Origin: Tolypothrix carrinoi HA7290-LM1 | GTDB lineage: Bacteria > Cyanobacteriota > Cyanobacteriia > Cyanobacteriales > Nostocaceae | DNA length: 59,111 nucleotides | Assembly (NCBI GenBank): GCA_019358935.1 | Contig: JAHHIK010000048.1 | Span: forward strand, 1-59,111 | Direction of reading: 5' to 3' | In this document: positions 6,075 to 21,732 of the stretch, piece after piece | How positions within the stretch are numbered: position 1 is the stretch's first letter | Layout: each line of letters starts with the position of its first letter | The notes under the pieces: generated by a model | What the model was told of the DNA's origin: nothing | The model's input: only the letters and a program-made list of their open reading frames with translations | Database searches by the model: none | Position numbers and translations under genes: made by a program

Positions 6075-6441
6075 CAAAAATTTGGGTTTAAAGCCTCGCC
6101 TTTCTAAGGCGACTTTTGATTTTGAGTTAGAAATATGGTATTATACTAATGCCCGTAGTCTAGAAGGCTCACGCGCAACGCAAAATTGGGTTTTCCCCAA
6201 CTACAATGCACAAGCTAGTGCGACATAGTGTAGGAAAGAGAAAAGGCAATTGAATAAATCTTTTCAAACGCGGTCGGGCAGCGCCACTTCCCACAACGGG
6301 GGGAACCCCCGCAAGGGAGTGGCTTGTCCGTGTGCGCTTGTGGACGTATCCAAACGGGGATATTTAGATGTTCGCATTTAGGTATCTAGGGAGGACGGAT
6401 GAAGCAAGAATCCTCGCACCTTTAGGTGCGAGGAGTGTCAA
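6075..6441 (+). mobile_element. Non-autonomous IS200/IS605-family element (no tnpA/tnpB) retaining both ends
   Basis: Target TTAC at 6071-6074; AAAG (6090-6093) plus left-end hairpin; GAAT (6408-6411) plus right-end hairpin 6411-6434; terminal TCAA 6438-6441. These are the four IS608 end tetranucleotides. Confidence 0.85.
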
Positions 6442-6461
6442 AAAGGGGGATGCAATAATTG
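6268..6461 (+). ncRNA. Putative TnpB omega/reRNA scaffold plus flanking guide
   Basis: GCTTGTGGA...GAAGCAAGAATC arrangement, a 12-bp stem with UUCG loop (about 6359-6386) containing G-U pairs, and the right-end hairpin. The 5' boundary is approximate. Confidence 0.6.
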
Positions 6462-6558
6462 CGGAAATTTTCATTCGTATCGTATAAATAAATCAAATTG
6501 AAAATAGGTAATTGTATTTACGTTATTTCTAAATGCATTTACTATTACCTATTACCGA

Positions 6559-6594
6559 GTAGTTAGCGCAAAGAGCGCTCTTTGCGCCGACTAC
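6559..6594. repeat. GTAG-flanked REP-like palindrome
   Basis: GTAGTTAGCGCAAAGAG-CG-CTCTTTGCGCCGACTAC. Confidence 0.6.
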
Positions 6595-6644
6595 AAATTT
6601 CAAAACCGCCTTAACAAACGTGCCATTTATTACCGAATCGCTTT

Positions 6645-8552
6645 TTAACCCACAGGTGACGGTTGCTTACTAAAGAAAGCTTTCATCACCGTTTCCGCCA
6701 TTTGCGGACTAGTTAAACCTAAGGAAGCCTTAGATTCATTCGGTTCGGCATGATCTACCAAAATATCTGGTACACCAATTCGCTTCACGGGAACCACAAT
6801 ATCAGCATCTAACAGCGCTTCTGCTACTGCTGAACCGAAGCCACCCATGAGACAGCCTTCTTCTAAAGTGACAACGCGCCCGATTTTTTTCGCCAAAGGT
6901 AAAATTAATTCTGTATCCAGAGGCTTGACAAAACGAGCATTTATGACAGTGGCTTGTATTCCGTGTTCGTTGAGAATCTCGGCAACTTGCATCGCTGGGT
7001 AAACCATTGTGCCGTAACCTAGCAACAACACATCATCGCCATTGCGGAGAATTTCGCCTTTGCCGATTTCCAGAGGTTCCCAGCCTTCTTCCATCAAGGG
7101 AACACCATAACCATTACCGCGAGGAGTACGCATAGCGATCGGTCCAGAGGTATGGTTAATCCCAGTCACCACCATTCGTTGCAATTCCGCTTCATCTTTG
7201 GGTGCCATCACCACGATATTGGGAATACAACGCAGATAGGCGATATCATACATACCTTGGTGCGTCGGACCATCCGCACCGACAATTCCCGCCCGATCCA
7301 TACAGAAGAACACAGGCAAGTTTTGGATGCAGACATCGTGAATTATTTGGTCGAAGGCGCGTTGCAAAAAGGTAGAATAAATGGCAACCACAGGGCGTAT
7401 ACCTTCTGCTGCGAGTCCTGCTGACATTGTAACGGCGTGTTGTTCGGCAATACCGACATCAATATATTGATCGGGCAATTTTGCTTGAAGTTTGTCTAAA
7501 CCTGTTCCTGTAGCCATCGCTGCCGTGATGCCGATGATTTTCGGGTTTTGTTCGGCGAGTTTCACTAAGGTGTGGGCAAAGACTTTGGCGTAAGCTGGCG
7601 GTTTGGGTTTGCTGGAAGGAACGGCTTTGCCAGTTAGCACATTAAACGGATTTTGGGCATGGTAGCCTACTTTGTCTAGTTCGGCGATTTCATAACCTTT
7701 GCCTTTTGTGGTGGCTACATGCACCAACACAGGACCGGTCATCTTATGTGCCTGTTCAAAGGTGGCGATTAATTCTTCTAAATTATGCCCGTCTACAGGT
7801 CCCATGTAGGTAAAGCCGAGTTCTTCAAAGACTGCGCCGACTTTGGGAACGGCTAACCGCTTCATTCCTTCTTTGATGCGTTCTAATTCCGGTGAAAGAG
7901 ATTCTCCAACAAAGGGAATTTGCTTGACTTGTTCCTCAAAGTTATCTTTGATAAATTGTACTGGGGGACTGAGACGCATTTTGTTGAGGTAACGAGGAAT
8001 CGCCCCAACGTTAGGAGAAATTGACATTTCGTTGTCGTTGAGGACAACTAATAAGTTAGTTTTGGGCAAGTGTCCAGCATGGTTGATGCATTCTAACGCC
8101 ATACCGCCAGTTAGCGCACCATCACCGATAATGGCGACAACTTTAAATTTTTCGCCTTTCATATCTCGCGCTAAAGCCATACCCAATGCCGCTGAGATAC
8201 TGGTTGAAGCATGTCCCGCGCCAAAGTGGTCAAACTTACTTTCACCGCGCTTGAGATAACCGGCAATTCCGTCTTTTTGCCGCAAGGTGTGGAAATTATC
8301 GTAACGCCCTGTAATTAGTTTATGGGGATAAGCTTGGTGTCCGACATCCCAAATGACTTTATCACAATCTAAATCTAGTGTCTGATAAAGCCCTAGGGTT
8401 AACTCTACAACACCTAACCCCGGTCCCAGATGTCCCCCAGTTGCGGCTACGGTTTGCAGATGCTTATCCCGAATTTGACGGGCAATTTGCTGCAACTGCC
8501 TAATCGATAAGCCGTGTAACTGGTTGGGATGGGTAATTTCACTCAGGTGCAT
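6645..8552 (-). CDS. dxs: 1-deoxy-D-xylulose-5-phosphate synthase
   Basis: [30 protein letters not shown] and DGPTHQG motifs. Confidence 0.98.
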
Positions 8553-8632
8553 ACTAATAGGTTTTCCTCTCTACTGATCGTATTATGATTTTCCCACGCT
8601 GATGTTGCCACTTGAGAGAAAAGGTGACAATA

Positions 8633-8794
8633 GGGGCATGGGGCATGGGGCATGGGGCAATGGGCATGGGGCATGGGGCAATGGGCAAGAAAGAGGGGGA
8701 AAGGGAAAAGGGTAAAGGGTAAAGGGCAAGAAAGAAGAAATATTTCTCCCCAGCTCCCCATGCCCCATGCCCTATGCCCCATGCCCCATTACCC
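8633..8794. repeat. STRR arrays (GGGGCAT / AAAGGGG / ATGCCCC)
   Basis: 7-bp tandem units in inverted orientation. Confidence 0.9.
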
Positions 8795-8798
8795 ACTG

Positions 8799-9461
8799 TC
8801 ATTTATTCGGCGCTGCTGGTGCTTCTGGTGTTTCGGGTTGTGGCTGTTGTCTTTGCAAATATTTACTCAAGACGTATGCCATATCCCCGCGTGTCATCGG
8901 TTTTAATGGGGCTATATTACCTTGTGCGTCTGTGTTGACGAATCCTTCACTAATTACTGTGGCGATCGCTTTTTTTGCCCAATCAGGAATTGTCTGCGCG
9001 TCTGGGTGAGAAGCAAGAATTTCATTTACTGTATCGTCGGGAAACTGAAATACACCATAAGCTTGGGCAAAAATCGCTAAAGCTTCTGCCCTTGTCACTT
9101 TTTGGTTGGGGAAAAACATATTTCCCCGATAGCCTTTCATAATCTCAGTTTTTAAGACTATTTGAATATCATTAAATGCTGGATTTGACGGCGCTACATC
9201 GGGAACTACTAGATTTTCTTTACTAATAGCCTGTCTTTTATCCAGTCGAAAGGCTTTCACCATAATCGAAGCTAATTCGGCACGACTGATTAACCTTTCT
9301 GTATAAAAGTTCCCATCAGGATAGTTGGTCATTAACTTTGCTGCAATTACCTGCTGAATTGAATCAAATGGTATAGCAGCTTGCGCGTTAACACGCAGCG
9401 GAAAATATTGTATTGCTACTATCGTAATAGTACTTAGTAGCTTATGCATGATTTTAACCAT
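8799..9461 (-). CDS. S-layer homology (SLH) domain protein
   Basis: Signal peptide and three SLH repeats (ISRAELA, VTRAEAL, MTRGDMA). Start may be ATG 9449. Confidence 0.9.
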   Translation of the reverse strand: MVKIMHKLLSTITIVAIQYFPLRVNAQAAIPFDSIQQVIAAKLMTNYPDGNFYTERLISRAELASIMVKAFRLDKRQAISKENLVVPDVAPSNPAFNDIQIVLKTEIMKGYRGNMFFPNQKVTRAEALAIFAQAYGVFQFPDDTVNEILASHPDAQTIPDWAKKAIATVISEGFVNTDAQGNIAPLKPMTRGDMAYVLSKYLQRQQPQPETPEAPAAPNK

Positions 9462-9560
9462 TTTTATAATGCAAATGCGGTACTTTGGTTAACATCAATT
9501 GTGATTAACTTATCTGGTGACGAATTGATGCTTGGCGATGTTGCCAACCCGCGAGAAGAA

Positions 9561-9675
9561 GGGGGAAGGGGAAAGGGGAAAGGGGAAGGGGGAATGGGGA
9601 ATGGGGAATGGGGAATGGGGAATGGGGAATGGGGAATGGGGAAAGGGGAAAGGGGAAAGGGGAAAGGTAAAAGGT
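9561..9675. repeat. STRR array (GGGGAAA / GGGGAAT)
   Basis: 7-bp tandem units. Confidence 0.9.
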
Positions 9676-9744
9676 AATAGATTTTTACTTTTACCTACTC
9701 TGTTATTTTGCCGGACTGTAACGGGGATGACAGTCTTTCAAAGG

Positions 9745-10761
9745 CTAACGAAACATACTACTTACAGAGCTATCTTCGTGAATTCTCCAGATGGTTTCTC
9801 CGAGTAGATTAGCCACTGAAAGGACGACGAGTTGTTCAAAGCGATCGCTATTCGGAATCGGAATCGTATTTGTAACGATCACTTCCTCAAACACACCACT
9901 GGATAGCCGCTCAATTGCAGGTGGAGAGAACACCGCATGAGTTGCACAAGCATAAACCTGACGCGCTCCTTCTTCACGCAATAACTGTGCCCCAGCCGCA
10001 ATTGTGCCGCCAGTGTCGATCATGTCGTCTACCAACACCGCCGTTTTGCCCTTAACATCGCCGATGACATTCATCACTTCAGCGACATTGTGAGCTTGAC
10101 GGCGTTTGTCAATAATTGCTAAGGGGGCATCATCCAGCTTTTTCGCAAATGCCCTCGCTCGCGCTACACCGCCAACATCCGGCGAAACTACCACCAAGTC
10201 AGGCAGTTTCTTACTTGCCAGATAATCTAGCAGCACTGGCGAACCATAAACATGGTCAAAGGGTATATCAAAATAACCCTGAATTTGTGCCGAGTGCAAA
10301 TCCATTGCCAAAACTCGGTTTGCACCAGCTTGGGTAATTAGGTTAGCAACCAGCTTGGCGGTGATTGACTCTCGTCCTGCGGTTTTGCGATCGGCGCGGG
10401 CATAGCCATAGTAAGGAATTACTGCCGTTACCTGCCGCGCTGAGGCACGACGACAGGCATCAATCATAATCAGCAATTCCATTAAGTGGTCGTTGACCGG
10501 TTGACACGATGGCTGGATTAAATAAACATCACAACCCCGAATCGATTCTTGAATTTGAACGTAAAGTTCTCCATCCGCAAATCTTTTGCGAATCATTGGT
10601 CCCAAGTCCATGCCCAAATAACGAGCAACTTCTTGAGACAGCGGTACGTTGGCAGAACCAGAGAACAGCCGCAGGCGATGATTTTCAGTCAGTCCTGTTG
10701 CAGTTGGCTGCACTTTTAAACTTGCAGAACTGAGCACAGCAGATCCTCTATGTGCATTCAT
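9745..10761 (-). CDS. prs: Ribose-phosphate pyrophosphokinase
   Basis: FADGE, PYYGYARADRK, VSPDVGG and VDDMIDTGGT motifs. Confidence 0.97.
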   Translation of the reverse strand: MNAHRGSAVLSSASLKVQPTATGLTENHRLRLFSGSANVPLSQEVARYLGMDLGPMIRKRFADGELYVQIQESIRGCDVYLIQPSCQPVNDHLMELLIMIDACRRASARQVTAVIPYYGYARADRKTAGRESITAKLVANLITQAGANRVLAMDLHSAQIQGYFDIPFDHVYGSPVLLDYLASKKLPDLVVVSPDVGGVARARAFAKKLDDAPLAIIDKRRQAHNVAEVMNVIGDVKGKTAVLVDDMIDTGGTIAAGAQLLREEGARQVYACATHAVFSPPAIERLSSGVFEEVIVTNTIPIPNSDRFEQLVVLSVANLLGETIWRIHEDSSVSSMFR

Positions 10762-10976
10762 GGCAATCTTATCATCAGATATTTAGCAGATTTAACCGAG
10801 ATAGTCAGAGAAAACATTTGTAAGTTTTTTTGAAGCTTTCATAAAAAGTCTCAATATTCCTCCATAAAGCGTTCGCGTTGTCATTTTCAAAGACTTCTGG
10901 CAAATCAACCATAGACAGCTTAACTGACATTAAGTTTTTGAACTAGATGCATTATTTAGATGTTTTTGCTTGAGGT

Positions 10977-11006
10977 AAAAAAAAACCAACTCCTTCGAGG
11001 TTGGTT
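10977..11006 (-). terminator. Intrinsic terminator facing prs with no annotated gene upstream
   Basis: Minus strand reads AACCAACCTCGAAGGAGTTGG followed by T9. Confidence 0.65.
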
Positions 11007-11346
11007 CGGTAGAGCATTTTCCTCTACCCACCTTATTTATAACTGAGCGTCAAGGATTCACACAGAAGAGTGATATCAAAGCAGGCACTCGTTAAGTAGA
11101 AACACCTGTGAATAAAAAACACTCGTGGCAATTGAATATTCTATGATACTAGCGGCAAATTTATAAAATGGCAGATTTAATTTAAGCTTTTAAATCTAAT
11201 TACACATCTCACAGCACTTTAAGTTATAACTCTTGACAAGCTAATATCTGGCGAAAGGGTGAAGAATTTTTAAAGGCAAAAAGCCAGCACAAGTTGGCAC
11301 AAAACGCTACCGTAGAAAATGACAAATAAACGTAAAAGGATAAGGA

Positions 11347-11641: not shown

Positions 11642-13372
11642 ATGATGCAACCACCCATTACTGTTGGTACTGTCCTGCAAAACCGTTATCGCATAATTCA
11701 AATTCTCGGTCAGGGGGGATTTGGCAGAACTTATTTGGCAGAAGACCAAAGGCGATTTAATGAACTTTGTGCGATCAAAGAATTAATTCCCACCGCTACT
11801 GTCCCTTCTGCTTGGGAGAAAGCACAAGAACTTTTTGCAAGAGAAGCAGCAATTTTATACCAAATTCAACATCCGCAAATACCGCAATTTAGAGAAAGAT
11901 TTGAACAAGACCAGCGCTTGTTTTTGGTGCAAGATTACGTTGCGGGTAAGACTTACCGCGCAATACTGGATGAGCGCAAGGCTGTTAATCAAACTTTCAC
12001 AGAAGCGGAAGTTTTGCAACTGATGCGCTCTTTGTTACCAGTTTTAGAGCATATTCACGGCCGCGGGATTATTCACCGGGATATTTCACCGGAAAATATT
12101 ATTTTGCGAGAAAGCGATCGCCTACCTGTTTTAATTGACTTTGGGGTGGTGAAAGAACTGGCAACTAAATTACAATCTTTAAATGCGTCAACGCCCGTCA
12201 CCACTGTGGGAAAATTAGGCTACGCGCCGAGCGAGCAAATGCAAACAGGAAGGGCTTACCCCAGTAGTGATTTGTATGCGTTAGCAGTCACAGTGCTAGT
12301 TTTGCTGACGGGTAAAGAACCGCAAGAATTATTTGATGAAAATCAATTAACTTGGAATTGGCAAAAGTTGGTAAAAGTCGATCCGCGATTTGCTCAAATA
12401 TTAAATCGGATGTTGAGTCATTCACCAAGCGATCGCTTTCATAGTGTTGCCGATCTCACCCAAGCTTTACAACTTTTGGCGCAACCAAATCAGGCAAATC
12501 CGCCTTTGTCCAACATGCAAACAGTCGCTGTCGGTGGTCGTCCAGATCCAATCCCACCTGTTGCGCCTAAAAGATTAGATCCGGTAATTCCCGATCCGCC
12601 CAGCAATTCTATTTTGGATAATCCCTTGGCGCTGGGTGCAATTGGCAGTGCCGTAATTATCTTAGCAGGAGTCGGTTCTTGGGCAATAGTAAGTTCTATC
12701 CGCAGTCAACCAAAAACATTAGCACCAGAAGCCCCACCACAAACTTTTCCTTCGCCAGTTATTACAGGTAGTGCTACACCGACACCGACATTTACACCTA
12801 CACCCACACCCACCAATGTTGAACCTATTGTCACTAATAAACGCCTAACTTTTGTCACTCCAAATCAACTTAATCTTGATGGTACTATCAAAGCAAATGA
12901 AACAGTTCAATACAGCTTTTTTGGCAGAAAAGGTTCAAAATTAATTGCATCGCTTTCCCCAGAAAGCAAGAATGTTTTGCTAACAGTTTTATCTCCAAAT
13001 CGACAAGCAATAGATAATTCGGCACAGCAAGTCACATCTTATCAGGGAATATTGCCTGAAAGTGGCAGATATATTATTCAGTTAACAGCACCAGAAGTAC
13101 CTGAAAGCAATTATGTCCTTAATGCTGGGTTAGAAAATTTAGAAGCGACACCGACAATCACGCCAACATTAGAACCGACATTTACGCCCACACCAGAGTC
13201 TACACCGACACCGACAATCACGCCAACACTGGCACCAACTTTTCCAGCACCACCTGTTAACAATTCGCCTACACTTCCTCCTTTACAGCCGCCGGAGTTT
13301 CCGTCTACATCTTCTCCAGAAGAAAATAATAATCCGCCTGTTGAGCAAACTCCTATTCCTAATCGCAATTAA
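11642..13372 (+). CDS. Hanks-type Ser/Thr protein kinase with TM segment, PT-rich linkers and a PPC-like extracellular domain
   Basis: GQGGFG, AIK, HRDISPEN, DFG and GYAPSEQ motifs. Confidence 0.95.
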   Translation: MMQPPITVGTVLQNRYRIIQILGQGGFGRTYLAEDQRRFNELCAIKELIPTATVPSAWEKAQELFAREAAILYQIQHPQIPQFRERFEQDQRLFLVQDYVAGKTYRAILDERKAVNQTFTEAEVLQLMRSLLPVLEHIHGRGIIHRDISPENIILRESDRLPVLIDFGVVKELATKLQSLNASTPVTTVGKLGYAPSEQMQTGRAYPSSDLYALAVTVLVLLTGKEPQELFDENQLTWNWQKLVKVDPRFAQILNRMLSHSPSDRFHSVADLTQALQLLAQPNQANPPLSNMQTVAVGGRPDPIPPVAPKRLDPVIPDPPSNSILDNPLALGAIGSAVIILAGVGSWAIVSSIRSQPKTLAPEAPPQTFPSPVITGSATPTPTFTPTPTPTNVEPIVTNKRLTFVTPNQLNLDGTIKANETVQYSFFGRKGSKLIASLSPESKNVLLTVLSPNRQAIDNSAQQVTSYQGILPESGRYIIQLTAPEVPESNYVLNAGLENLEATPTITPTLEPTFTPTPESTPTPTITPTLAPTFPAPPVNNSPTLPPLQPPEFPSTSSPEENNNPPVEQTPIPNRN

Positions 13373-13540
13373 TAATATGTGATATGAGAAAAAAAAATGA
13401 TTAACTAACCGCAGAGAACGCAGAGAACGCATCAGAAAAAAAAGGGAGTTTTGGAAATGATTGAGAATTAGATTTATCATTTCACTTTCATGGTCAAAAT
13501 TAAATAGGGTAAATTCAGTGCTAATAACTAATAATTTTCA

Positions 13541-14224
13541 ATGAATACATTACTAATTACGGGAACGGATACGGAAGCTGGGAAAACTGTTTTTACAACA
13601 GCGTATTCTGCTTATTGGCAAATATATTATCCGCAGCGACGTTTGGGAATTATGAAACCGATTCAATCGGGTGAAGGCGATCGCGAACTTTATCAAAAGC
13701 TGTTTTCTTTAGATCAATCTTCTGAAGAAATTACACCTTTGTATTTTCAAGCACCTCTGGCGCCACCGATTGCCGCAGCACGCGAAAATCGAGAAGTAGA
13801 TTTAAAGCTGGTGTGGCAAACTTTGGAAAAAGTGCGATCGCGTCATGATATTCTTTTAATAGAAGCTTTGGGCGGATTAGGCTCACCCGTAACTTCGGAG
13901 TTGACGGTAGCAGATTTAGCAGGGGAATGGCGTTTGCCGACGGTATTGATAGTACCTGTGAAATTGGGAGCGATCGCGCAAGCTGTAGCCAATGTAGCAT
14001 TAGCTAGACAATCTCGCGTGCATCTAGTTGGTATTGTCCTCAACTGCGTCGAACCGCGAACATCAGCGCAAATTGCCGATTGGACACCACCACAATTGAT
14101 TCAATCGCTGACTAATACGCCTGTTTTAGGTTGCGTGCCTTACTTAGAAAATACATCTGATTTAGAGAAAATGGCACAAGTAATATCAAATTTAGATTTG
14201 GAAACTTTAACTATCTGCTCGTAA
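13541..14224 (+). CDS. bioD: Dethiobiotin synthase
   Basis: ITGTDTEAGKT, MKPIQSG and IEALGG motifs. Confidence 0.95.
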   Translation: MNTLLITGTDTEAGKTVFTTAYSAYWQIYYPQRRLGIMKPIQSGEGDRELYQKLFSLDQSSEEITPLYFQAPLAPPIAAARENREVDLKLVWQTLEKVRSRHDILLIEALGGLGSPVTSELTVADLAGEWRLPTVLIVPVKLGAIAQAVANVALARQSRVHLVGIVLNCVEPRTSAQIADWTPPQLIQSLTNTPVLGCVPYLENTSDLEKMAQVISNLDLETLTICS

Positions 14225-14270
14225 CGCATCCTACAATCCTTTTATGTCTAATTTGATTAGGTTACTTGTC

Positions 14271-14422
14271 ATATCATGTCCGGGTAATTAGTTATGATTC
14301 CCATCGTCAAGAAGCACCCCACCCCTTAATCCCCTCCCCGCTTGCGGGGAGGGGAGACAAAGCTACGCTTTGGCGGGGTGGGGTTCTTTGGGCGATCGTA
14401 AGTAATCAAACGGACATGATAT
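14271..14422. mobile_element. 152-bp MITE-like element with an internal GC hairpin
   Basis: Perfect 12-bp terminal inverted repeat ATATCATGTCCG, extending imperfectly to about 28 bp. Abuts the NACHT stop codon. Confidence 0.75.
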
Positions 14423-16587
14423 CAGTCCGATACTCTTATGATAGATGGTTTAACCAATGGTATCCCACACTTGGAGCAGAATTTGAAATTAGACGGATTA
14501 TTGTTACCACAATTGGTACATACAAGATGATTTGGAACTGGAGTTGGAGGCTGAGAAGCGCTATTATTAATATTAGTTAAATCAGGTTTAGTTGGTGCGT
14601 TATTCCTGTCAATAAACTGAAGATTTGGTACGGTCGTTGATTGAACAGGTACTGACGCCATCTGAGCAAAATGTTCGAGCAGCATTCGATGAACAAAAAT
14701 GTAACCACCCCCAACTTTTTGTAAAAAAATGCGTTCAGTGCCATAGTCAAGGAAGTGGGCATAGTTGCTGGGGATATAACCTTTACTGTAAAGAATAAAG
14801 CGTAAGGTAAAGTGTTGGATGCAGGCTTTACCACCCCCAAAAATTAGCCCAAAAATTAGCCCAAAGTCCAGCCCCAACAATACCCAATTTGGTTTACCGC
14901 TTAATAAGCCGATAAAGGCGCCGAATAATCCACCAATTAATCCAATAATCACAGCATTCCTGCCTGAGTTTGAAATGCCCTGATTGGGACTTGTTTTTCT
15001 CTCTATTTCTGGACCTCTCAGCCCACCAAGCAACCCCAAAATCAGTGCATCAATTAGCCAATAAATCAGCACCAATCTCTGCACATCCAGGTCTGGTTTA
15101 AACAACCAAAGAACCAGTCCCACAATCACCGCTAAAGGCAGTCCATTTAGCAGTCCATTAATTAGAAACTTCCTTGCTTCTTGCCAAGACCATCTCAGAG
15201 TTTCAACTGTTTTGATTTCTGTCATCTGCCATAATAAACTCAGCCCGCCAATAGGTACACCAATTTGCAAACTAAGTTGAAAAGACTTACTTTGATCTAG
15301 GAATCCGATTAACCCACCAATCAGTCCCCCAAGTAGCCCCCCAATCAGAAAACTTCCAATCCTATAAAGTATTTTTTGAGTCTTAGTCTCGAACCAAGTA
15401 GGCTGCAATCCTTCAATTAAAAACATCGTCTGAGAAGTTTGAGACAAACGCTTTGCTAGCCAAATTAGCCAGCGCGTTGCTTGTTCTTTCGGGTATTTCT
15501 GTTTAGCTTCCTTGCGGCTAAACATCGTTTCAATATAAGTATTAAACAGATGCCGACGCTGTTCTTCTATCGAGTTTGTTTGGGGTAAGTCTTCAACTAA
15601 TTTGCCTTCATATGCCAAAGTCATGACGCTGAGAGTCAGGGGAGATTTGGCTAACTCTTGCAGTGCAGTATCTTTTTCAAGTAATGTTCTCAAAGCTTCT
15701 AATTGATTGCCAGCACTGTTTAGATATTGCTTAATCTGCTCATCGGTTAATGATTGGACGCAGATAGCACCTTGTAGTTGCAGACGAGTAGAGAGAGCAT
15801 TATAATCTTGGATGCGGCTACACACGATTATCTCGGTTTGTCCATGCTTTTGCATGAATTCATTCAAGGCTTGAACACAGGCTTCCCGATACTCAGATTT
15901 CACCTCATCCAGACCATCCAGCGTCAGTAGCAGTTGTTGCTTTTTAATCCAAGCTTTAGCTAAGGATTTGGAAACTTTATATTGCCTATTCAATTCTTGA
16001 ACAACCCAATCAGCAATATTTTGCCGCTTATTTGCCCAAGAGGATAAATTAAATACGACTGGAATTGGTCGGCTTAAGTCCTGTTCAGTACGAGTTATCA
16101 AATGCTTTGTCAGTGTCAGGAGGGTTGTGGTTTTACCTGCTCCCGGTTCTCCTAATATCAGAAGAGTTCGTCCCTCTCCCATTTGATTGAAGACATCTGT
16201 TACCCCAACTCCCGTGGGTAGTGCTTGTCCAGATTTATCAGGCAACTCGTCAATACCAAGATGTTCTACTGCGTCTAATTGCTCTTCCAAACTTAATTCA
16301 ATCATCACTCTGGTATGCAATGACTTTTCTAAGACACCTTCAATCCAATAGTTTTTAACTTTATTGAGCAAAACCTTACGTTGTTTATACTCCTCTTGAG
16401 TAGTGGGTTTTGCTACATCAGATGTCCGACGACCTAAAAAATCAGATATCTGAAAAAGACTTTTATTTACATAAATGACGCTTCCCTGAATGAAGTCACC
16501 TTGGATATAATCACCCTGAATTGACTCATTATAATTGCCGCTTCTTATATTAATACTGCGGTTATAAGGCTCTTGATTTGTTGTCAT
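14422..16587 (-). CDS. NACHT (STAND) NTPase with N-terminal G/N/Y motif, multi-TM C-terminal region and zinc ribbon
   Basis: Walker A GEPGAGKTT, Walker B LTLDGLDEV, GLxGGL TM repeats and a terminal CTNC...CSKC. Confidence 0.92.
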   Translation of the reverse strand: MTTNQEPYNRSINIRSGNYNESIQGDYIQGDFIQGSVIYVNKSLFQISDFLGRRTSDVAKPTTQEEYKQRKVLLNKVKNYWIEGVLEKSLHTRVMIELSLEEQLDAVEHLGIDELPDKSGQALPTGVGVTDVFNQMGEGRTLLILGEPGAGKTTTLLTLTKHLITRTEQDLSRPIPVVFNLSSWANKRQNIADWVVQELNRQYKVSKSLAKAWIKKQQLLLTLDGLDEVKSEYREACVQALNEFMQKHGQTEIIVCSRIQDYNALSTRLQLQGAICVQSLTDEQIKQYLNSAGNQLEALRTLLEKDTALQELAKSPLTLSVMTLAYEGKLVEDLPQTNSIEEQRRHLFNTYIETMFSRKEAKQKYPKEQATRWLIWLAKRLSQTSQTMFLIEGLQPTWFETKTQKILYRIGSFLIGGLLGGLIGGLIGFLDQSKSFQLSLQIGVPIGGLSLLWQMTEIKTVETLRWSWQEARKFLINGLLNGLPLAVIVGLVLWLFKPDLDVQRLVLIYWLIDALILGLLGGLRGPEIERKTSPNQGISNSGRNAVIIGLIGGLFGAFIGLLSGKPNWVLLGLDFGLIFGLIFGGGKACIQHFTLRFILYSKGYIPSNYAHFLDYGTERIFLQKVGGGYIFVHRMLLEHFAQMASVPVQSTTVPNLQFIDRNNAPTKPDLTNINNSASQPPTPVPNHLVCTNCGNNNPSNFKFCSKCGIPLVKPSIIRVSD

Positions 16588-16667
16588 AATATAACCTGCA
16601 TGAAGTTATTAAATAACAAGAAAAGCAGACGAGTAAATTTTACAGAAAAAATAGAATGTATTAAGGC

Positions 16668-17720
16668 TTAATTACCCTTAGTTTTCTGCCAATCTTCCAA
16701 AGCACCAATGACAAAGCTAGCTGCTGGATGATTGAGCAATTGCCCAAAAGCCTGCACACCACCTGCTTTCGATGCACTAAGTATCCTCTCTACTAAAGAG
16801 GGATTATTTTCAATACTCTTAATAGTTTCGGCAGCTACTTGCATTTTACCCAAGGTGGTATCAGTAGAATAAGACTTGTCTAGTTGTTCAAGTAGTTTTT
16901 GAATTTCCGCAGCAACTTCAGTCAGGTTTTGTTTTTCACTACTAGCATAATAATTACCTTGGACATAATTGCCTTCAATGCGCTCGTTGTAGTTGCCGCT
17001 ACCTATGTTGATACTGCGTTTATCAGTCATATCAGATTTTTGTTTTTTATCTGGGGAAATTATTTGATTAGTAGAAAGTCTAATGCCTATATCTTTGTTA
17101 ATTTTGATGGAGGGAATTAAAGACTGGGGAATGCCATTTAGGTCAATATTATTACAGCCTAGTTGAAAAGCATCCTCATAGTTTCTCCCAGCACCAATCA
17201 CATCATAAAAGCCTTGGGCAAATTTAATTGCTGCATCATCTCGTATAGAACGCTCCATGCCAATAACGCAATAAATATGCTTATGAATTTCTTCTGCCTG
17301 GACTTCTGAATAGCAGGCATTGAGTAGCACACATTCAATTGTGTTTTGAAAACTCTTAAATAAGTCTGTTAGTGATTTTGTACTTACCAATTGCATTTCC
17401 CCAGAGTTATTCTCTAAAGCTATACCTCCTGAGGGCGAATTTAAACGGTAAGCTTCGCGCTGTTGTAATTGCCCGGAGTTATTTTTGACAACTATGTTAT
17501 TATTTGCTGTTGCATGTCCGGAGAAATGCACAATCTGTGGTTCGCAATCTAACAAAGCACGACGCAAATCATCAATCCGAACAGCCCCCTCAGTAATAAC
17601 TTCAAAATTATCTCGATATTTGGAACGTCTCAACGCTGTTTTTATTTCCCGAATTTCCTCATCTAAACGTAGCCAATCTGTGTTTCTCGGATTGGCTGAT
17701 AAAATTAGAATTTTTTTCAT
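16668..17720 (-). CDS. CHAT (caspase-like) domain protein with G/N/Y motif and C-terminal helical domain
   Basis: ILILSANP..LRLDEE, catalytic HFSGH and LNACYS, and AIKFAQGFY. Confidence 0.9.
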   Translation of the reverse strand: MKKILILSANPRNTDWLRLDEEIREIKTALRRSKYRDNFEVITEGAVRIDDLRRALLDCEPQIVHFSGHATANNNIVVKNNSGQLQQREAYRLNSPSGGIALENNSGEMQLVSTKSLTDLFKSFQNTIECVLLNACYSEVQAEEIHKHIYCVIGMERSIRDDAAIKFAQGFYDVIGAGRNYEDAFQLGCNNIDLNGIPQSLIPSIKINKDIGIRLSTNQIISPDKKQKSDMTDKRSINIGSGNYNERIEGNYVQGNYYASSEKQNLTEVAAEIQKLLEQLDKSYSTDTTLGKMQVAAETIKSIENNPSLVERILSASKAGGVQAFGQLLNHPAASFVIGALEDWQKTKGN

Positions 17721-17861
17721 ACTTTTGGATGAAGACAGAATCTACAATAAAATGTATTGATTCTATATCTATGTTGAGTTTTTTTAACCTCAAGCTGTTA
17801 AAATCAGTTTGAGTCACACGAATGAGCTTGTACTTAATATAGTACACAGGTTTAACTTGAT

Positions 17862-17955
17862 CAGGACTTACGCACTCCTTCACGGAATAACGAACCGCGA
17901 AGGCACGAAGGACACGAAGGAATAAGAGTTGCAGAGAGTTTTTGCGTAAGTCCTG
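17862..17955. mobile_element. 94-bp MITE-like element (TIR CAGGACTTACGCA)
   Basis: 13-bp perfect TIR; homologous to 38110-38203 in reverse orientation. Confidence 0.8.
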
Positions 17956-18007
17956 TAAACTAGGAAAATAACATCAGTTAGCCGTGTTAAATTAACCTGT
18001 TTAAACA

Positions 18008-19225
18008 ATGATTTCCACGTTCCCCAACGCTCAGAGTGTAAATTTATCTCGCGTCCGCTTGGATATTAGATCGCTACAACCTCAACTGGTAGAATGGCGA
18101 CGACGACTGCATCAACAACCAGAGTTAGGTTTTCAAGAAAAACTCACTGCTGAGTTTGTTTCACAGAAGTTGCAGGAATGGGGAATTGAGCATGAAACGG
18201 GAATTGCTCAAACTGGAATTGTGGCAACAATAAAAGGTGGTAAAATTGATAGTGGGAAAGTGTTGGCAATTCGGGCAGATATGGATGCTTTGCCAATTCA
18301 AGAACTCAACGAAGTGCCATATAAATCGCAACATGATGGAGTAATGCACGCTTGCGGTCATGATGGACATACAGCGATCGCTTTAGGCACAGCTTACTAT
18401 CTGCAATCAAATCGCCAAAACTTCGCCGGACATATAAAAATTATCTTTCAACCAGCGGAAGAAGGACCCGGAGGTGCAAAGCCGATGATTGAAGCTGGGG
18501 TACTGAAAAACCCTGATGTGGATGCAATCATCGGTTTGCATTTGTGGAATAATTTGCCTTTGGGAACTGTCGGTGTCCGCGCTGGGGCGTTAATGGCAGC
18601 GGTAGAATGCTTTAAATGCACGATTTTGGGCAAAGGTGGACACGGGGCAATGCCTCATCAAACGATTGATTCTATCGTGGTTGCGGCTCAAATTGTCAAC
18701 GCTTTACAAACCATTGTCTCACGTAACGTCGATCCAATAGATTCGGCGGTGGTGACAGTCGGAGAACTTCACGCAGGAACCAAGCTGAATATTATTCCCG
18801 ATACAGCTAGGATGAGTGGGACGATACGTTATTTTAAACCTGATTTAAAAGGCTTTTTCCAAAAGCGAATTGAGCAAATTATCGCCGGCGTTTGTCAGAG
18901 TCATGGTGCGAGTTATGACTTAGAATACTGGGAACTTTACCCACCAACTATCAACGATGCAGGGATGGCAGAATTTGTGCGATCGCAAGCCGAACAAGTG
19001 ATAGAAACTCCTCTCGGAGTTGTCCCAGAATGTCAAACAATGGGCGGCGAAGATATGTCATACTTTTTACAAGCTGTTCCCGGTTGTTATTTCTTCCTCG
19101 GTTCTGCAAACCCTGCCAAAGACTTAGCTTATCCGCATCATCATCCCCGCTTTGATTTTGACGAAACCGCTTTACCAATGGGTGTAGAAATCTTCGTCCG
19201 CTGCGTCGAAAAATTCTTATCGTAG
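18008..19225 (+). CDS. M20D-family amidohydrolase (N-acyl-L-amino acid amidohydrolase-like)
   Basis: RADMDALP, MHACGHDGH, FQPAEE, GGEDM and HHHPRF motifs. Confidence 0.93.
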   Translation: MISTFPNAQSVNLSRVRLDIRSLQPQLVEWRRRLHQQPELGFQEKLTAEFVSQKLQEWGIEHETGIAQTGIVATIKGGKIDSGKVLAIRADMDALPIQELNEVPYKSQHDGVMHACGHDGHTAIALGTAYYLQSNRQNFAGHIKIIFQPAEEGPGGAKPMIEAGVLKNPDVDAIIGLHLWNNLPLGTVGVRAGALMAAVECFKCTILGKGGHGAMPHQTIDSIVVAAQIVNALQTIVSRNVDPIDSAVVTVGELHAGTKLNIIPDTARMSGTIRYFKPDLKGFFQKRIEQIIAGVCQSHGASYDLEYWELYPPTINDAGMAEFVRSQAEQVIETPLGVVPECQTMGGEDMSYFLQAVPGCYFFLGSANPAKDLAYPHHHPRFDFDETALPMGVEIFVRCVEKFLS

Positions 19226-19242
19226 TAAGCGCTGTACTCGCT

Positions 19243-21147
19243 TTAGTAGGTCGCAAACTTAGGTAAATTTTCCTGGCGCCACTTCGCATCTACTTTTCGA
19301 TTTGTTCGCAATTCCAAAACCCGAATTCCCTTACTTGGTAGTAAAGTTAAGTTTTGTTGCAACTTCTCCCAAGAAGTAATCAATTCATGCTCTACTCCAT
19401 AAGTGGCGCACAATTGAGCAAAATCAATATCTTGCGGAGTGGCAAAAAATTCTTCAAATGGCGGGTCAAATTGAGCGATGGGTAACATTTCAAAAATCCC
19501 ACCGCCATTGTTATTAATTAACACGATGGTTAGATGTCCAACAAACTTATTTCTAATTAAAAAGCCATTCGTATCGTGCAATAAAGATAAATCTCCAGTT
19601 AACATGACACTGCTTTGATGACGATGGGCGATTCCTAAAGCAGTGGATAATGTACCATCTATACCATTCGCACCTCGATTAAAATGCGATCGCACTCCTA
19701 AATTATTCGGCTTCCAGAAAAATTCTACATCACGAACCGGCATACTGTTGGCGATAAATAGCGGCGTTCCCGCTGGTAGTATTTGTGAAAGCAACCAAGC
19801 AGCTTTACTTTCAACTAACTCATTCATTGTCGCCATAGTTTGGTCAACATTTGACCTAACTTGCGCTTCCGCATCACACCAAAGTTGGAGATAGGGAGTG
19901 GGAGATGAGGGAGACAAGGGAGAGGGGGGAGAGGGGGGAGACAAGGGAGAGGGGGGAGACAAGGGAGACAAGGGAGATGGGGAAGTGGCAATAATTCCCC
20001 CTTGTCCTCCTTGTCCTCCTTGTCCTCCTTGTCCCCCTTGTCCCCCTAGTCCCCCTTGTCCTCCTAGTCCCCCTAGTCCCCCTAGTCCCCCTTGTCCCCC
20101 TACTCCCTGCGTTAGCTGTTCAATCGATACTCGTAGGTGGATTGTCTTACCGTGGAGGGGGTCAAGATTTTGGTCGCTAGGGTCAATTATCCAGCGTTTG
20201 GCTTGTGTAGTATTTAGCCAGGTACGCAGTTGTTTACTGGTGGGAAGTTCCCCGATTTGAATTACTATTTCTGGTGCTAGCTGCATCGATTGCTGCTGCA
20301 AACGCAAAATTAGGTCATAGGTAGATATTAAATAGGGGTTGAGGTCGGCATAATTTCTTACAGGTGAGAGTCCCTCTGCAAGAACCGGAAATTTTAAGGT
20401 TTGGGAAAGTTGCGCGATCGCACTACAATATTCTTTTGGCTGCTGCACTTGAGCAACGCCGGCAATTATTATCCCTCGTTGAGATTGTAACCATTCTTGG
20501 GGAATGGGGATTGGGGAGTAGGGAGTGGGGGAAAAAGTTGTTATTGCAGAAAAGAATTCTTCTTCTGAAAATTCTACTTGTATATTTGCATCGGGAATTG
20601 GTGCGAGGGGGTCGCGAAAGGGTATATTTAAATGTACTGGACCTGGGACAGGGTAGAGCGATCGCTCCCATGCATGAATTACCGTTTGTCGCAGATAAGC
20701 TAACATTTGCATATCTGGTGAAGGTAAGGCTAACTCTGTTTGCCAGTTTGGGTAATTTCCATATAGCTTTAATTGGTCTATGGTTTGTCCGGAGTGACAA
20801 TCTCGCAATTCTTGCGGTCTATCAGCGGTTAATATCAATAAAGGGACGCGACTTTCTCTAGCTTCAATGACTGCTGGGTAAAAGTTTGCTCCTGCGGTTC
20901 CCGAACTGCAAATCAATACTACAGGACGTTTGGTTGCTTTAGCTACTCCCAAAGCAAAAAAAGCGGCAGAACGTTCATCGAGAATGGAAATCGCTTCAAT
21001 ATTATATGAAGCTTTGGCAAAGGCGAGTGCTAAAGGTGTGGAACGCGAACCAGGACAAATTACCGCACAAGTCAATCCTAAGCGCAAAAGCGTTTCCGCC
21101 AAGATAAAAGCCCAAAGTTGATTAGTATTGTTAAAGGCGATCGGCAT
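19243..21147 (-). CDS. menD: SEPHCHC synthase with an in-frame repeat-derived insertion
   Basis: CPGSRSTPLA, DERSAAF, SGTAGAN, NRGANGIDG and NNNGGGIF motifs. True start is probably ATG 21147. Confidence 0.95.
   Translation of the reverse strand: MPIAFNNTNQLWAFILAETLLRLGLTCAVICPGSRSTPLALAFAKASYNIEAISILDERSAAFFALGVAKATKRPVVLICSSGTAGANFYPAVIEARESRVPLLILTADRPQELRDCHSGQTIDQLKLYGNYPNWQTELALPSPDMQMLAYLRQTVIHAWERSLYPVPGPVHLNIPFRDPLAPIPDANIQVEFSEEEFFSAITTFSPTPYSPIPIPQEWLQSQRGIIIAGVAQVQQPKEYCSAIAQLSQTLKFPVLAEGLSPVRNYADLNPYLISTYDLILRLQQQSMQLAPEIVIQIGELPTSKQLRTWLNTTQAKRWIIDPSDQNLDPLHGKTIHLRVSIEQLTQGVGGQGGLGGLGGLGGQGGLGGQGGQGGQGGQGGQGGIIATSPSPLSPLSPPSPLSPPSPPSPLSPSSPTPYLQLWCDAEAQVRSNVDQTMATMNELVESKAAWLLSQILPAGTPLFIANSMPVRDVEFFWKPNNLGVRSHFNRGANGIDGTLSTALGIAHRHQSSVMLTGDLSLLHDTNGFLIRNKFVGHLTIVLINNNGGGIFEMLPIAQFDPPFEEFFATPQDIDFAQLCATYGVEHELITSWEKLQQNLTLLPSKGIRVLELRTNRKVDAKWRQENLPKFATY
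19893..20108. repeat. Inverted 9-bp tandem arrays inside menD
   Basis: GGAGACAAG-type arm followed by a TCCCCTTGT-type arm. Confidence 0.9.
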
Positions 21148-21162
21148 TAATTTAAATAAAGG

Positions 21163-21261
21163 AATGGGCATTGGGCATTGGGCATTGGGCATTGGGCATT
21201 GGGCATTGGGCATTGGATAAATTCTTCCTAGTCCCCTAGTCCAAGCGTCCCTAGTCCCCAG
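21163..21261. repeat. STRR arrays (TTGGGCA, CCTAGTC)
   Basis: 7-bp tandem units. Confidence 0.85.
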
Positions 21262-21353
21262 TTTCTGACAAAGACAATATTAATTTTAGATTTTGTATGC
21301 GAGAATTCACTTTAAAATCCAGAATGCAAAATTCATTTTTAGACTGAAATTTC

Positions 21354-21725
21354 ATGGACTCGATTCATTTAACGGGAATTCGCTGCTATGGCTATACTGG
21401 CTATCTGGCTGAGGAACAGGTGTTAGGACAATGGTTTGAGGTGGATGTGAAATTATGGTTAGATATCTCCACAGCGGCTAAAACTGACGCGATTGAAGAC
21501 ACTGTGGATTATCGCAGTGTCATTGCCAAAGTGCAACATCTAGTAAAGACATCTAAGTTTGCTTTGATAGAACGTTTAGTAGCGACGATCGCTGATTCTA
21601 TTCTCATTGAATGCGATCGCGTTTCAACTGTGCAAGTCACTTTAAGCAAACCCGCTGCACCCATTCCCGACTTTGGCGGCAAAATTACCATTGAACTGAC
21701 TAGAAGTAAGTCCAACCCATTTTAA
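21354..21725 (+). CDS. folB: Dihydroneopterin aldolase
   Basis: [23 protein letters not shown] and SKP motifs. Confidence 0.95.
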
Positions 21726-21732
21726 AGCGATC

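Follow-up and report, generated by a model that had tools for sequence, protein, structure and literature searches.

Two adjacent genes in the window, by which we mean the whole stretch of 59,111 nucleotides analysed here, encode a CHAT protein and a NACHT NTPase that carry one common short motif, which raises the question of whether this motif wires one protein to the other, and by what kind of contact. As judged from comparison with related loci, the two genes probably form an NLR-type module that works like a published BASS effector/NLR pair, with a contact that would be of the amyloid type.

The CHAT and NACHT genes and their common motif

As claimed in the preliminary description, both open reading frames and both motif copies were located in adjacent co-directional genes, with the CHAT gene situated 80 bp upstream of the NACHT gene on the minus strand; the module consists of these two genes and spans 3.3 kb. 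Its features are as follows.

16668..17720, minus strand: gene (ORF) of the CHAT protein, a putative caspase-like protease of 350 aa, with CHAT domain, linker, motif and helical C-terminal domain (CTD)
17109..17720, minus strand: CHAT domain, residues 1-204, with an insert of low confidence at residues 70-96
17514..17516, minus strand: codon of His69 (HFSGH), putative catalytic His
17313..17315, minus strand: codon of Cys136 (LNAC), putative catalytic Cys
16947..17018, minus strand: effector-side motif RSINIGSGNYNERIEGNYVQGNYY, CHAT residues 235-258, named class A (motif A)
16671..16934, minus strand: helical CTD, CHAT residues 263-350 (about 88-92 aa), without a Pfam family
16588..16667, minus strand: intergenic spacer of 80 bp between the co-directional genes
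14422..16587, minus strand: gene (ORF) of the NACHT NTPase, 721 aa, with motif, NACHT, transmembrane (TM) insertion, winged-helix-like segment and zinc ribbon
16483..16560, minus strand: receptor-side motif RSINIRSGNYNESIQGDYIQGDFIQG, NACHT residues 10-35
15718..16170, minus strand: NACHT nucleotide-binding domain, residues 140-290, with Walker A GEPGAGKT from residue 146 (regex)
14830..15372, minus strand: glycine-zipper-rich transmembrane region, residues 406-586, with about 5-6 predicted helices
14668..14703, minus strand: winged-helix-like NACHT motif YIFVHRMLLEHF, residues 629-640, after the TM region (regex)
14455..14520, minus strand: C-terminal zinc ribbon, residues 690-711 (Pfam Zn_Ribbon_1, E=1.5e-6)

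On the minus strand of the 80-bp spacer, no terminator-like site was detected, and a single weak promoter-like match was found at 16664-16637. Searches with NCBIfam and PADLOC assigned the pair to no named defence system; the PADLOC 'chat' profile matched the CHAT protein with E=2.5e-17. The same domain was recognised by Pfam (PF12770, residues 9-184, E=1e-11, 45.3 bits against a gathering cut-off of 24), and the protein has 1959 homologues, cyanobacterial throughout among the matches listed. The AF2 model was confident over the CHAT domain except for residues 13-17 and 70-96. His69 and Cys136, which had been described as intact, proved to be invariant in 86 aligned homologues, and the CHAT protein is most likely the effector of the pair, a predicted Cys/His protease of the caspase-like type.

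In the partner protein, which has 2284 homologues, Pfam NACHT was matched at residues 140-290 (E=9.8e-11, 42.2 bits against a gathering cut-off of 26.7), and Kyte-Doolittle peaks (window 19) were observed at residues 412-430, 478-496, 505-523, 545-563 and 568-586. The string YIFVHRMLLEHF was called by a pattern that we take to be that of the winged-helix-like NACHT motif. It lies 483 residues after Walker A, compared with +290 and +319 for two NACHT partners that are soluble, indicating an insertion of the TM helices inside the NACHT module. The zinc ribbon was also found in the orthologous partners at loci L002 and L004.

Apart from motif A, which is 24-27 residues long, the full-length CHAT and NACHT proteins showed no similarity to each other. 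The Smith-Waterman local score of the motif pair was 94, compared with a mean of 30.2 (sd 5.6, max 57; z=11.4) for 2000 composition-preserving shuffles of the NACHT N-terminus. In the alignment of the two copies, 16 of the 24 residues are identical, all of them within the first 21, and codon comparison showed that the codons differ at 6 of these 16, reproducing the earlier counts of 16/21 identities and 6/16 synonymous codons; nucleotide identity amounts to 51/72 (71%). This last value, together with the biased composition of the peptide, would be consistent with a functionless similarity, that is, low-complexity convergence or the trace left by a local duplication or by gene conversion. Such an explanation is, however, strongly disfavoured by the score relative to shuffles of the same composition, by the differing codons and by the retention of both motif copies in orthologues, the NACHT-side copy being kept in the close orthologues P0269-P0274 and P0281.

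Motif A is rich in N, G, Y and I and contains no K, P or L, and the intervals between its G-N/D-Y/F triplets are 8, then 5 (then 5) residues. A reading as a pentapeptide repeat was rejected, since neither protein matched a pentapeptide family at E<=1 and the spacing is irregular. Among class-A CHAT proteins, conservation was 0.70 in the motif, against 0.71/0.66 in the catalytic core and 0.43 in the linker, and the AF2 model gave CHAT residues 220-262, which span the motif, a pLDDT of <50. Prediction of a complex between CHAT residues 225-350 and NACHT residues 1-60, both supplied as alignments, returned a score of 0.00, which gave no verdict and is evidence neither way.

Recurrence of motif pairing in cyanobacterial loci

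Pairing was assessed in 31 cyanobacterial loci in which a CHAT gene encoding no more than 400 aa is followed by a downstream ORF; at each locus the CHAT tail was compared with the N-terminus of the next gene's product against 300 shuffles. Loci with CHAT-ATPase fusions of >500 aa, which represent a different architecture, were left out of this set and rejected as pairs, their downstream match being only P-loop paralogy around 'PRQMGKSSL'. The cognate score exceeded all 300 shuffles in 18 of the 31 loci, and the mean cognate score of 58.6 was reached in 0 of 5000 permutations of the pairing (mean 33.7, max 46.8); the other 13 loci, which gave no significant pair, count against coupling through the motif. 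At least five motif classes were found in the paired loci, with the class agreeing within each locus, and several unrelated classes serve one CHAT family. This recurrence with other motif classes speaks further against a functionless similarity. Among the 17 of these 18 loci that were scanned, 13 had partners of the STAND type (NACHT 6, NB-ARC 2, nSTAND1 4, iSTAND 1). Inside class A, in contrast to the agreement between classes, pair-specific co-evolution was not detected among 8 pairs (cognate 0.535, non-cognate 0.519, permutation p=0.15), so that specificity is visible only at the class level. The second CHAT locus of the source genome, on contig C16, was rejected as a second pair (score 53 against a shuffle maximum of 58); the partner there is a TM/TPR protein with a motif-like N-terminus and is nearly an orphan, with 5 matches including itself.

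Relatives of the window NACHT-TM protein carry at the motif slot either different short motifs rich in G/N/Q or complete effector domains, namely CHAT (P0300 and P0334), TIR, protein kinase and guanylate cyclase. The CHAT-NACHT-TM fusions P0300 and P0334 lack the motif, which points to a link between the CHAT and NACHT proteins themselves. In the sister protein P0301, the first 28 residues are, in a by-eye comparison, identical to the string 'Ccya03_s014' in the accessible part of the BASS training set PMC8086366, in the data file of which 'QGFIQEN' occurs 15 times.

When 201 genomes of the order were searched with a profile of motif A, 27 matches were obtained, distributed over 11 of these genomes. 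In favour of the coupling, 12 of the matches were situated at most 5.3 kb from another match and 14 within 6.2 kb; the 13 singletons weigh against it. Such singletons would be accounted for if the motif served both proteins as a common address, or as a tag for docking to some third component, be it a cellular structure or a hub protein, so that CHAT and NACHT would be co-located and not mutually bound. The combination of motif and CTD on pentapeptide-repeat, Roc-COR, TIR, kinase and AbiTii proteins, many of them without a matching neighbour within +-1.5 kb, would fit this as well. When loci encoding CTD-bearing proteins in other genomes were examined, only 3 of about 27 had a matching motif in the surrounding +-1.5 kb; this result likewise opposes the main reading and indicates that the motif is not always paired with a neighbour. 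A docking tag is nevertheless improbable, given that the motif class switches jointly in adjacent genes, that motif-less CHAT-NACHT fusions exist, and that motif A occurs in the source genome in no more than three clear copies and a weak one.

The co-variation by class, the STAND partners, the fusions and the BASS-set motif of P0301 thus support a functional coupling of CHAT and NACHT, and by this comparative evidence the pair reads as a BASS-like effector/NLR pair. To that extent the earlier proposal of an NLR and an effector coupled via a common motif, as in BASS and HET-s, was upheld; specificity within class A did not bear it out.

Proposed coupling and its relation to known systems

The motif pair most likely lets the NACHT sensor recruit and switch on the CHAT protease, as the sequence comparisons suggest. 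In the mechanism that we infer, which includes the binding of CHAT to NACHT, the amyloid nature of their contact, the cue and the outcome, NACHT would act as sensor and switch, and the common motif would replace the covalent link of the fused CHAT-NACHT relatives. A cue, perhaps in or at the membrane, would bring about nucleotide binding and oligomerisation of NACHT, upon which the clustered N-terminal motifs would adopt ordered beta structure and form an amyloid-like nucleus. The CHAT motif, predicted to be disordered in the monomer, would then dock onto this nucleus or be templated by it, and the CHAT molecules gathered in this way would be activated by proximity, with proteolysis leading to arrest or death of the cell.

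Caspase-like proteases are often controlled by cleavage, and the motif lies in the predicted disordered linker of CHAT and at the exposed N-terminus of NACHT. It might accordingly be regarded as a recognition or processing site of CHAT, which would cleave itself at the linker and also cleave the NACHT N-terminus. We consider this very improbable, because 24 conserved residues far exceed a protease site, similar motifs precede the CTD in protease-less proteins and pair with NTPases there, and one CHAT family uses several unrelated motif classes.

The recruitment of CHAT by NACHT could also proceed by an ordinary stoichiometric contact, such as beta-strand addition or a short-linear-motif heterodimer, without self-propagating amyloid or prion-like templating. 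The comparative evidence addresses the coupling and not its physical form, and the CHAT motif (residues 235-258 of 350) precedes a folded helical domain, unlike the C-terminal motifs of the published BASS screens; a position between two folded domains is unusual in comparison with the terminal amyloid motifs in print and could impede the stacking of fibrils. In members L020 and L035 of the same CHAT family, the motif is C-terminal and the CTD is absent. On the other hand, BASS motifs are described in the accessible text of Dyrka et al. (2020, bioRxiv 10.1101/2020.01.06.895854) as about 20-25 residues long, enriched in N/Q/G/V/I and depleted of K/P/L, and motif A agrees with these features in its length, its composition and its conserved G/N positions. 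The motif of the published set on the sister NACHT protein and the fibrils that, according to the available parts of the literature, were formed by the BASS motifs tested elsewhere point in the same direction. A contact of the stoichiometric kind is therefore unlikely, though a serious contender.

Experimental demonstrations of amyloid signalling between motif pairs exist for BASS1/3 and BASS11 Bab/Agp. The window pair resembles BASS in its adjacent collinear genes, in a G/N/Q-rich motif of about 25 residues common to the effector and to the N-terminus of the NACHT/NB-ARC protein, in the 'all-in-one' effector-NOD fusions among its relatives (P0300 and P0334, together with TIR, kinase and cyclase fusions), in the sister of its NACHT family that starts with a string from the 'Ccya03' set (PMC8086366), and in its filamentous cyanobacterial host, CHAT being named among the non-Bell effectors (Dyrka 2020). 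It differs in having CHAT and not Bell as effector, an internal motif followed by the helical domain, and a receptor in which TM helices and a zinc ribbon take the place of TPR/WD40. These atypical parts, already emphasised in the preliminary description, are all present. Two of them have precedents in print, namely CHAT effectors bearing BASS motifs (Dyrka 2020; Ibarlosa 2024, bioRxiv 10.1101/2024.11.07.622273) and NACHT proteins that have TM regions, in some cases within the module itself (Kibby et al. 2022, bioRxiv 10.1101/2022.07.19.500537). What looks new is motif class A, relative to the readable part of the BASS data sets PMC8086366, in which no motif-A words were found; the internal motif before a widespread Pfam-less helical CTD; and the membrane helices inserted within the NACHT module. 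In the titles, abstracts and passages covered by the literature search, no description of motif A or of the CTD was found; an instance may have been published in supplementary material to PMC12261475 or to the bioRxiv preprints (e.g. in Fig. S5 or Table S2 of Dyrka 2020).

Among other systems, Bab/Agp (BASS11, antiphage in E. coli; Ibarlosa 2024) is likewise composed of two genes, with a sensor that activates the adjacent effector via a common amyloid motif, and BASS11 is also associated with CHAT, TIR, NACHT and NB-ARC in the available text of that preprint. It has another motif, a pore-forming Bab effector and an Agp sensor with GreA/B-C and PIN, and its evidence is experimental, whereas the window pair is known from sequence. 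HET-S/NWD2 of Podospora and the RHIM necrosome, as presented in the accessible sources, share the principle that the N-terminal motif of an NLR or adaptor acts as a template for its counterpart in an effector of cell death; both are eukaryotic and without sequence relation, and their effector is a pore former or kinase and not a protease. The bNACHT antiphage proteins, in the accessible text of Kibby 2022, include TM-type NACHT sensors, whereas the window effector is separate and would be reached via a short motif, with no phage phenotype known for the window clade. The EAD, Death-like and TRADD-N adaptors (Kaur et al. 2020, PMC7159879; 2021, PMC8195603) also provide homotypic coupling of caspase, TIR and comparable effectors to STAND NTPases, but the coupling element of the window is a short motif, predicted to be disordered, and not a folded helical adaptor.

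If the reading as a BASS-like module is true, it would add a caspase-like protease effector, a membrane-embedded NLR sensor and a further motif class to bacterial amyloid and adaptor signalling. The small pair, with Walker A, Cys136 and motif prolines as mutational handles, would also be a convenient NLR-to-caspase test case in multicellular bacteria.

The helical domain behind the motif and the flanks of the locus

The CTD was modelled by AF2 as a 5-helix bundle (pLDDT 89.5). A Pfam search, EAD and TCAD models included, gave no match at E<=1; likewise, Foldseek against the PDB gave no match at E<=1e-3 and a sequence-profile search of the PDB nothing below E=0.089. The best hits of a wide structural search (Z 5.6) were generic helical bundles such as TetR C-terminal domains, and Atlas returned hypothetical cyanobacterial clusters together with a weak TCAD2 lead (0.86, rank 30). 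The CTD matched 1156 representative proteins at E<=1e-3, and of 61 genomes sampled from the order, 29 contained the cassette.

The domain was found fused behind CHAT, TIR, EAD1, TRADD-N, Roc-COR, kinase and AbiTii domains, a distribution resembling that of the EADs, and at the N-terminus of a NACHT at locus L092. It was missing from the CHAT fusions examined and from the CHATs with a C-terminal motif. The CTD is probably an accessory part, and may serve as an EAD-like adaptor or oligomerisation module. If the motif pair works as inferred above, it would also draw attention to a large Pfam-less family of such domains, always located behind motifs of this kind, which could reveal how motifs are silenced or effectors oligomerise.

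More tentatively, the variable G/N-rich motif and the helical CTD may together constitute an undescribed, widespread cyanobacterial signalling cassette that plugs CHAT, TIR, pentapeptide-repeat, Roc-COR, kinase and AbiTii effectors, and even NACHT N-termini, into amyloid-type assemblies, with coupling either in cis, between neighbouring genes, or in trans, throughout the genome. In the window, the driver of this cassette would be a NACHT with membrane helices inside its NOD module, through which a perturbation of the membrane would directly cause the prion-like activation of the caspase-like protease; a further client of this sensor, acting in trans, could be the second CHAT, on contig C16.

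The pair has a syntenic counterpart in a related genome and does not represent a recent insertion. Its flanks had been described as MITE-like, which was borne out on one side. The palindromic 150-bp element at 14272-14421 is missing at the syntenic locus L002, but gave only 5 blastn matches including itself and is not highly repeated, whereas the element at 17855-17960 is repetitive, with 85 blastn matches genome-wide, of which 18 extend over nearly its whole length.

A shared peptide in adjacent CHAT and NACHT genes

The preliminary description had noted one short peptide common to two adjacent, otherwise unrelated genes, and this observation was confirmed. The two reading frames are co-directional on the minus strand of the window and spaced by 80 bp.

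17720..16668, minus strand: CHAT protease ORF, 350 aa; Pfam CHAT at E=1e-11, 45.3 bits (cut-off 24)
16587..14422, minus strand: NACHT NTPase ORF, 721 aa; Pfam NACHT at E=9.8e-11, C-terminal zinc ribbon at E=1.5e-6

With PADLOC, the CHAT protein matched the generic 'chat' model and the NACHT protein matched NACHT-type ATPase models; no named defence system was found for the pair, and an NCBIfam scan of the two proteins gave nothing above its cut-offs. Both peptides were located as described, at residues 235-258 of the CHAT protein (16947-17018) and residues 10-35 of the NACHT protein (16483-16560). The reported identity of 16/21 was reproduced as 16 identical residues among 24 aligned, all within the first 21, and differing codons were indeed used at 6 of the 16, with a nucleotide identity of 51/72. 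The local alignment score of this motif was 94, as against a mean of 30.2 (sd 5.6, maximum 57) for 2000 shuffles of the NACHT N-terminus, and local alignment detected it as the sole similarity between the two proteins. H69 (HFSGH) and C136 (LNAC), the putative catalytic residues previously regarded as intact, were invariant across 86 homologues.

Homologues of the CHAT protein amounted to 1959 matches, cyanobacterial in every case among the matches listed, and the nearest of those listed were from Hassallia and Tolypothrix (90-92% identity). The family was shown to have a fixed layout, in which the CHAT domain is followed by a variable linker, a G/N/Y/Q-rich segment and a conserved helical C-terminal domain (CTD) of ~90 aa. 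The G/N/Y/Q-rich segment differed sharply from one CHAT subgroup to another, and the CTD was well conserved. In an AF2 model built on 86 sequences, the CHAT domain and the CTD were modelled confidently, and the linker and motif (residues 220-262) had pLDDT values below 50, with block means of 27-30. The motif type of the window, termed class A, was found in 40 of the 86 aligned CHAT rows. Within these rows, the mean pairwise identity of the motif was 0.70 (slightly inflated, as a 5-residue word within the motif served to define class A), compared with 0.71 and 0.66 for the catalytic core and 0.43 for the linker; over all 86 rows it was 0.37, among the least conserved parts of the CHAT protein. 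Being conserved within class A and poorly conserved over the whole alignment, the motif behaves in the manner of a cassette, exchanged between CHAT subgroups and thereafter retained.

Matching motifs across cyanobacterial CHAT loci

Relatives of the CHAT gene were sampled at 80 loci in cyanobacterial genomes, and at each the CHAT tail was compared with the N-terminal 70-90 residues encoded by the next same-strand gene. Thirty-one loci, the window and the second CHAT locus of this genome included, had a CHAT protein of ≤400 aa and a downstream ORF ≤600 bp away. In 18 of these loci, none of 300 shuffles of the N-terminus concerned reached the cognate score; in the other 13 this was not so. Over the 31 loci, which are partly kin and not independent (L007 and L008 are from one assembly, and L002 is an orthologue of the window), the mean cognate score was 58.6; random re-pairing yielded 33.7 on average and 46.8 at most, and none of 5000 permutations was as high. 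The matching motifs fell into at least five unrelated classes, and both genes of a locus switched class together.

Table. Classes of matching motif in CHAT loci.
Class A: GNYNERIEGDYIQGN
Class B: GGMQAxQGNNNQ
Class C: AGDNAxxFGxIGQVGxINL; at the true C-terminus of the CHAT protein, without CTD
Class D: NRSVSVGGSVxGSAIxTGD
Class E: GQAGRDLxQ

Seventeen partners from the 18 matching loci, L008 being left out, were scanned for domains. STAND-type domains were identified in 13 of them (NACHT in 6, NB-ARC in 2, nSTAND1 in 4 and iSTAND in 1); the remaining four comprised one with a zinc ribbon alone and three without a Pfam family. A profile of motif A gave 27 matches, in 11 of the 201 sampled genomes of the order, and matched in none of 10 genomes sampled from the same family. 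Of these matches, 12 lay within 5.3 kb and 14 within 6.2 kb of another, and 13 stood alone. These many singletons, as well as the absence of pair-specific co-variation within class A, are against or neutral to the reading that the motifs act as a pair.

The second CHAT locus of this genome (L001, G000:C16, 2775-5809) was found to contain a further CHAT-motif-CTD gene (319 aa) followed by that of a 670-aa TM + TPR protein, in which an NTPase domain was absent. The N-terminus of the latter weakly resembled the NLR-side motif A, with a non-significant score of 53 versus a shuffle maximum of 58, a result that likewise speaks against the motif pair or is neutral to it. This near-orphan protein (5 matches, itself included) could be a partner that has recombined or is decaying. 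Beside the locus, at 120-1007 and 6272-11316, there are a reverse-transcriptase fragment (RVT_1) and a SWIM zinc-finger protein, the latter forming a pair with a WGR + HEAT protein.

The N-terminal slot of the NACHT protein and the proposed contact

The Walker A motif of the NACHT protein starts at residue 146, and residues 406-586 contain approximately five segments that are strongly hydrophobic and glycine-zipper-like. The winged-helix-like NACHT motif YIFVHRMLLEHF, recognised by what we take to be its characteristic pattern, occurs at residue 629, 483 residues past Walker A. As two soluble NACHT proteins, partners at other loci, have this pattern at +290 and +319, the membrane helices seem to have been inserted inside the NACHT module. 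The NACHT-TM body had 2284 homologues, whose N-termini were modular: motif A was present in close orthologues only (P0269-P0274, P0281), other homologues carried different G/N/Q-rich N-terminal motifs of ~25 residues, and in further homologues entire effector domains were fused at the position of the motif.

Table. Effector domains fused to NACHT-TM homologues at the position of the motif.
CHAT: P0300, P0334 (Pfam-confirmed, full sequences read; without motif and without CTD)
TIR: P0349, P0355, P0360, P0361 (precomputed Pfam annotation)
Protein kinase: P0382, P0384 (precomputed Pfam annotation)
Guanylate cyclase: P0386 (precomputed Pfam annotation)

These fusions to the same NACHT body provided an 'all-in-one' argument that CHAT would be the effector of this sensor. 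The best-supported reading of the sequences is that the motif pair replaces a covalent CHAT-NACHT link. The activated, oligomerised NACHT protein would present its N-terminal motifs in clusters, and these would recruit the disordered CHAT motif, whereby the CHAT protease would be concentrated and activated. The internal placement of the motif in the CHAT protein is against or neutral to such pairing. The motif composition, the invariant G/N/Y positions in both partners, the predicted disorder of the motif in the monomer, a motif of the published set of bacterial amyloid signalling sequences (BASS) at the same slot of the sister protein P0301, and experimental precedents in other BASS-type systems point to an amyloid-like contact between the motifs, to which a plain stoichiometric beta contact is a serious rival.

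In the part of the BASS training files of PMC8086366 that was covered, the entry 'Ccya03_s014' was the same, by eye, as the first 28 residues of the sister NACHT protein P0301, and QGFIQEN had 15 occurrences. The top 'Ccya03' index in that part was 38, matching the 38 training sequences given for BASS9 in Table 1 of that paper; we infer from this match that Ccya03 may be BASS9. Words of motif A were not found in the part of the BASS files searched. In the portion of supplement file 1 covered, the N-terminus of a BASS 'C06' NLR (C06_BAZ20405.1) showed a class-B-like 'SGGMQAIQGDNNIQ' ahead of its annotated motif, which may represent two different motifs in tandem on one NLR.

The principle of the pair is already published. 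Effector/NLR pairs with common motifs are described in Dyrka 2020 (10.1101/2020.01.06.895854), where CHAT is placed among the non-Bell effectors, and amyloid signalling in antiphage defence is shown in Ibarlosa 2024 (10.1101/2024.11.07.622273), where CHAT is listed among the BASS11 partners; TM-type NACHT sensors are listed in Kibby 2022 (10.1101/2022.07.19.500537). What appears to be new is the class A motif, its placement inside the protein before a large domain family that lacks a Pfam match, the combination of a motif pair with a TM-inserted NACHT and a zinc ribbon, and the modular 'motif + CTD' cassette.

The motif-CTD cassette and the genomic setting

A search with CHAT residues 225-350 gave 1156 representative proteins at E≤1e-3, in which the CTD was almost always matched at the C-terminus. 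The domain scan covered 83 of 150 matches listed, the longer ones being chosen; pentapeptide repeats were present in 31 of the 83, and 40 were without a Pfam family at E≤1e-4. Other domains among them were CHAT, TIR_2, EAD1, TRADD-like_N (n=2), LRR/Roc/COR (n=4), protein kinase and N6 methylase. The CTD was always preceded by a G/N-rich segment, of which there were several types, motif A among them, and stand-alone 'motif-CTD' proteins of ~120 aa occurred as well. Of 61 genomes sampled from the order, 29 contained the CTD; in this genome it was confined to the two CHAT proteins. The CTD alone was confidently predicted to be a 5-helix bundle (pLDDT 89.5), for which no informative relatives were found by structure or sequence.

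Among approximately 27 CTD loci of other genomes (±1.5 kb flanks), a neighbour with a matching motif was found in 3 only, and the modules without one are again against or neutral to motif pairing. L085 has a matching motif in the neighbouring gene. In L097/L113 (L113 4143-5306), the gene downstream of a motif-CTD gene (124 aa) encodes a CHAT protein (234 aa) whose N-terminus bears the same 33-residue motif (score 122), an arrangement in which the CHAT-motif-CTD layout is divided between two genes; in L107/L112, only 3 bp separate a motif-CTD gene from the gene of a NACHT-NCC-H-NCAB1 protein downstream (score 59). The NACHT protein of L092 (1-1845, minus strand) begins with a short motif and the CTD; the CTD would therefore take the N-terminal place that an effector or adaptor has in an NLR. 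The CTD is distributed in the manner of an adaptor or effector-associated domain, and we infer such a role here. In other genomes, a DUF6232 protein gene directly adjoins each of three motif-CTD genes of the stand-alone type (L090 1896-2453, L094 869-1465 and L102 882-1355).

The window was collinear with the Spirirestis MAG contig L002 over 12000-21727 (88-92% nucleotide identity), and the pair was therefore regarded as inherited rather than newly inserted. Two elements flank it.

17855-17960: repeat element of ~100 bp, just upstream of the CHAT gene
14272-14421: palindromic element of 150 bp, directly behind the NACHT stop codon; its inverted arms of 28 nt are 82% complementary

Both flanks had been described as MITE-like, which was partly confirmed. 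The element at 17855-17960 had 85 blastn matches in the genome, 18 of them spanning ≥70% of the element, and it can be classed as a MITE- or REP-like repeat. The element at 14272-14421 had only partial copies elsewhere in the genome (4 short matches) and was missing at the syntenic position of L002. The genes neighbouring the pair look like housekeeping-type genes, judged by eye from their translations. A large ORF at 19243-21213 (minus strand), MenD-like by eye, has an in-frame low-complexity insert around 19824-20260 (GQGGLGG... then SPLSPPSP...); the L002 alignment breaks within this ORF at 19961-20066, which suggests that the insert is length-variable. A further ORF, of 576 aa, lies two genes from the pair at 11642-13372 (plus strand); by eye it resembles a Ser/Thr kinase, and it contains a hydrophobic segment as well as extended Pro/Thr-rich repeats.
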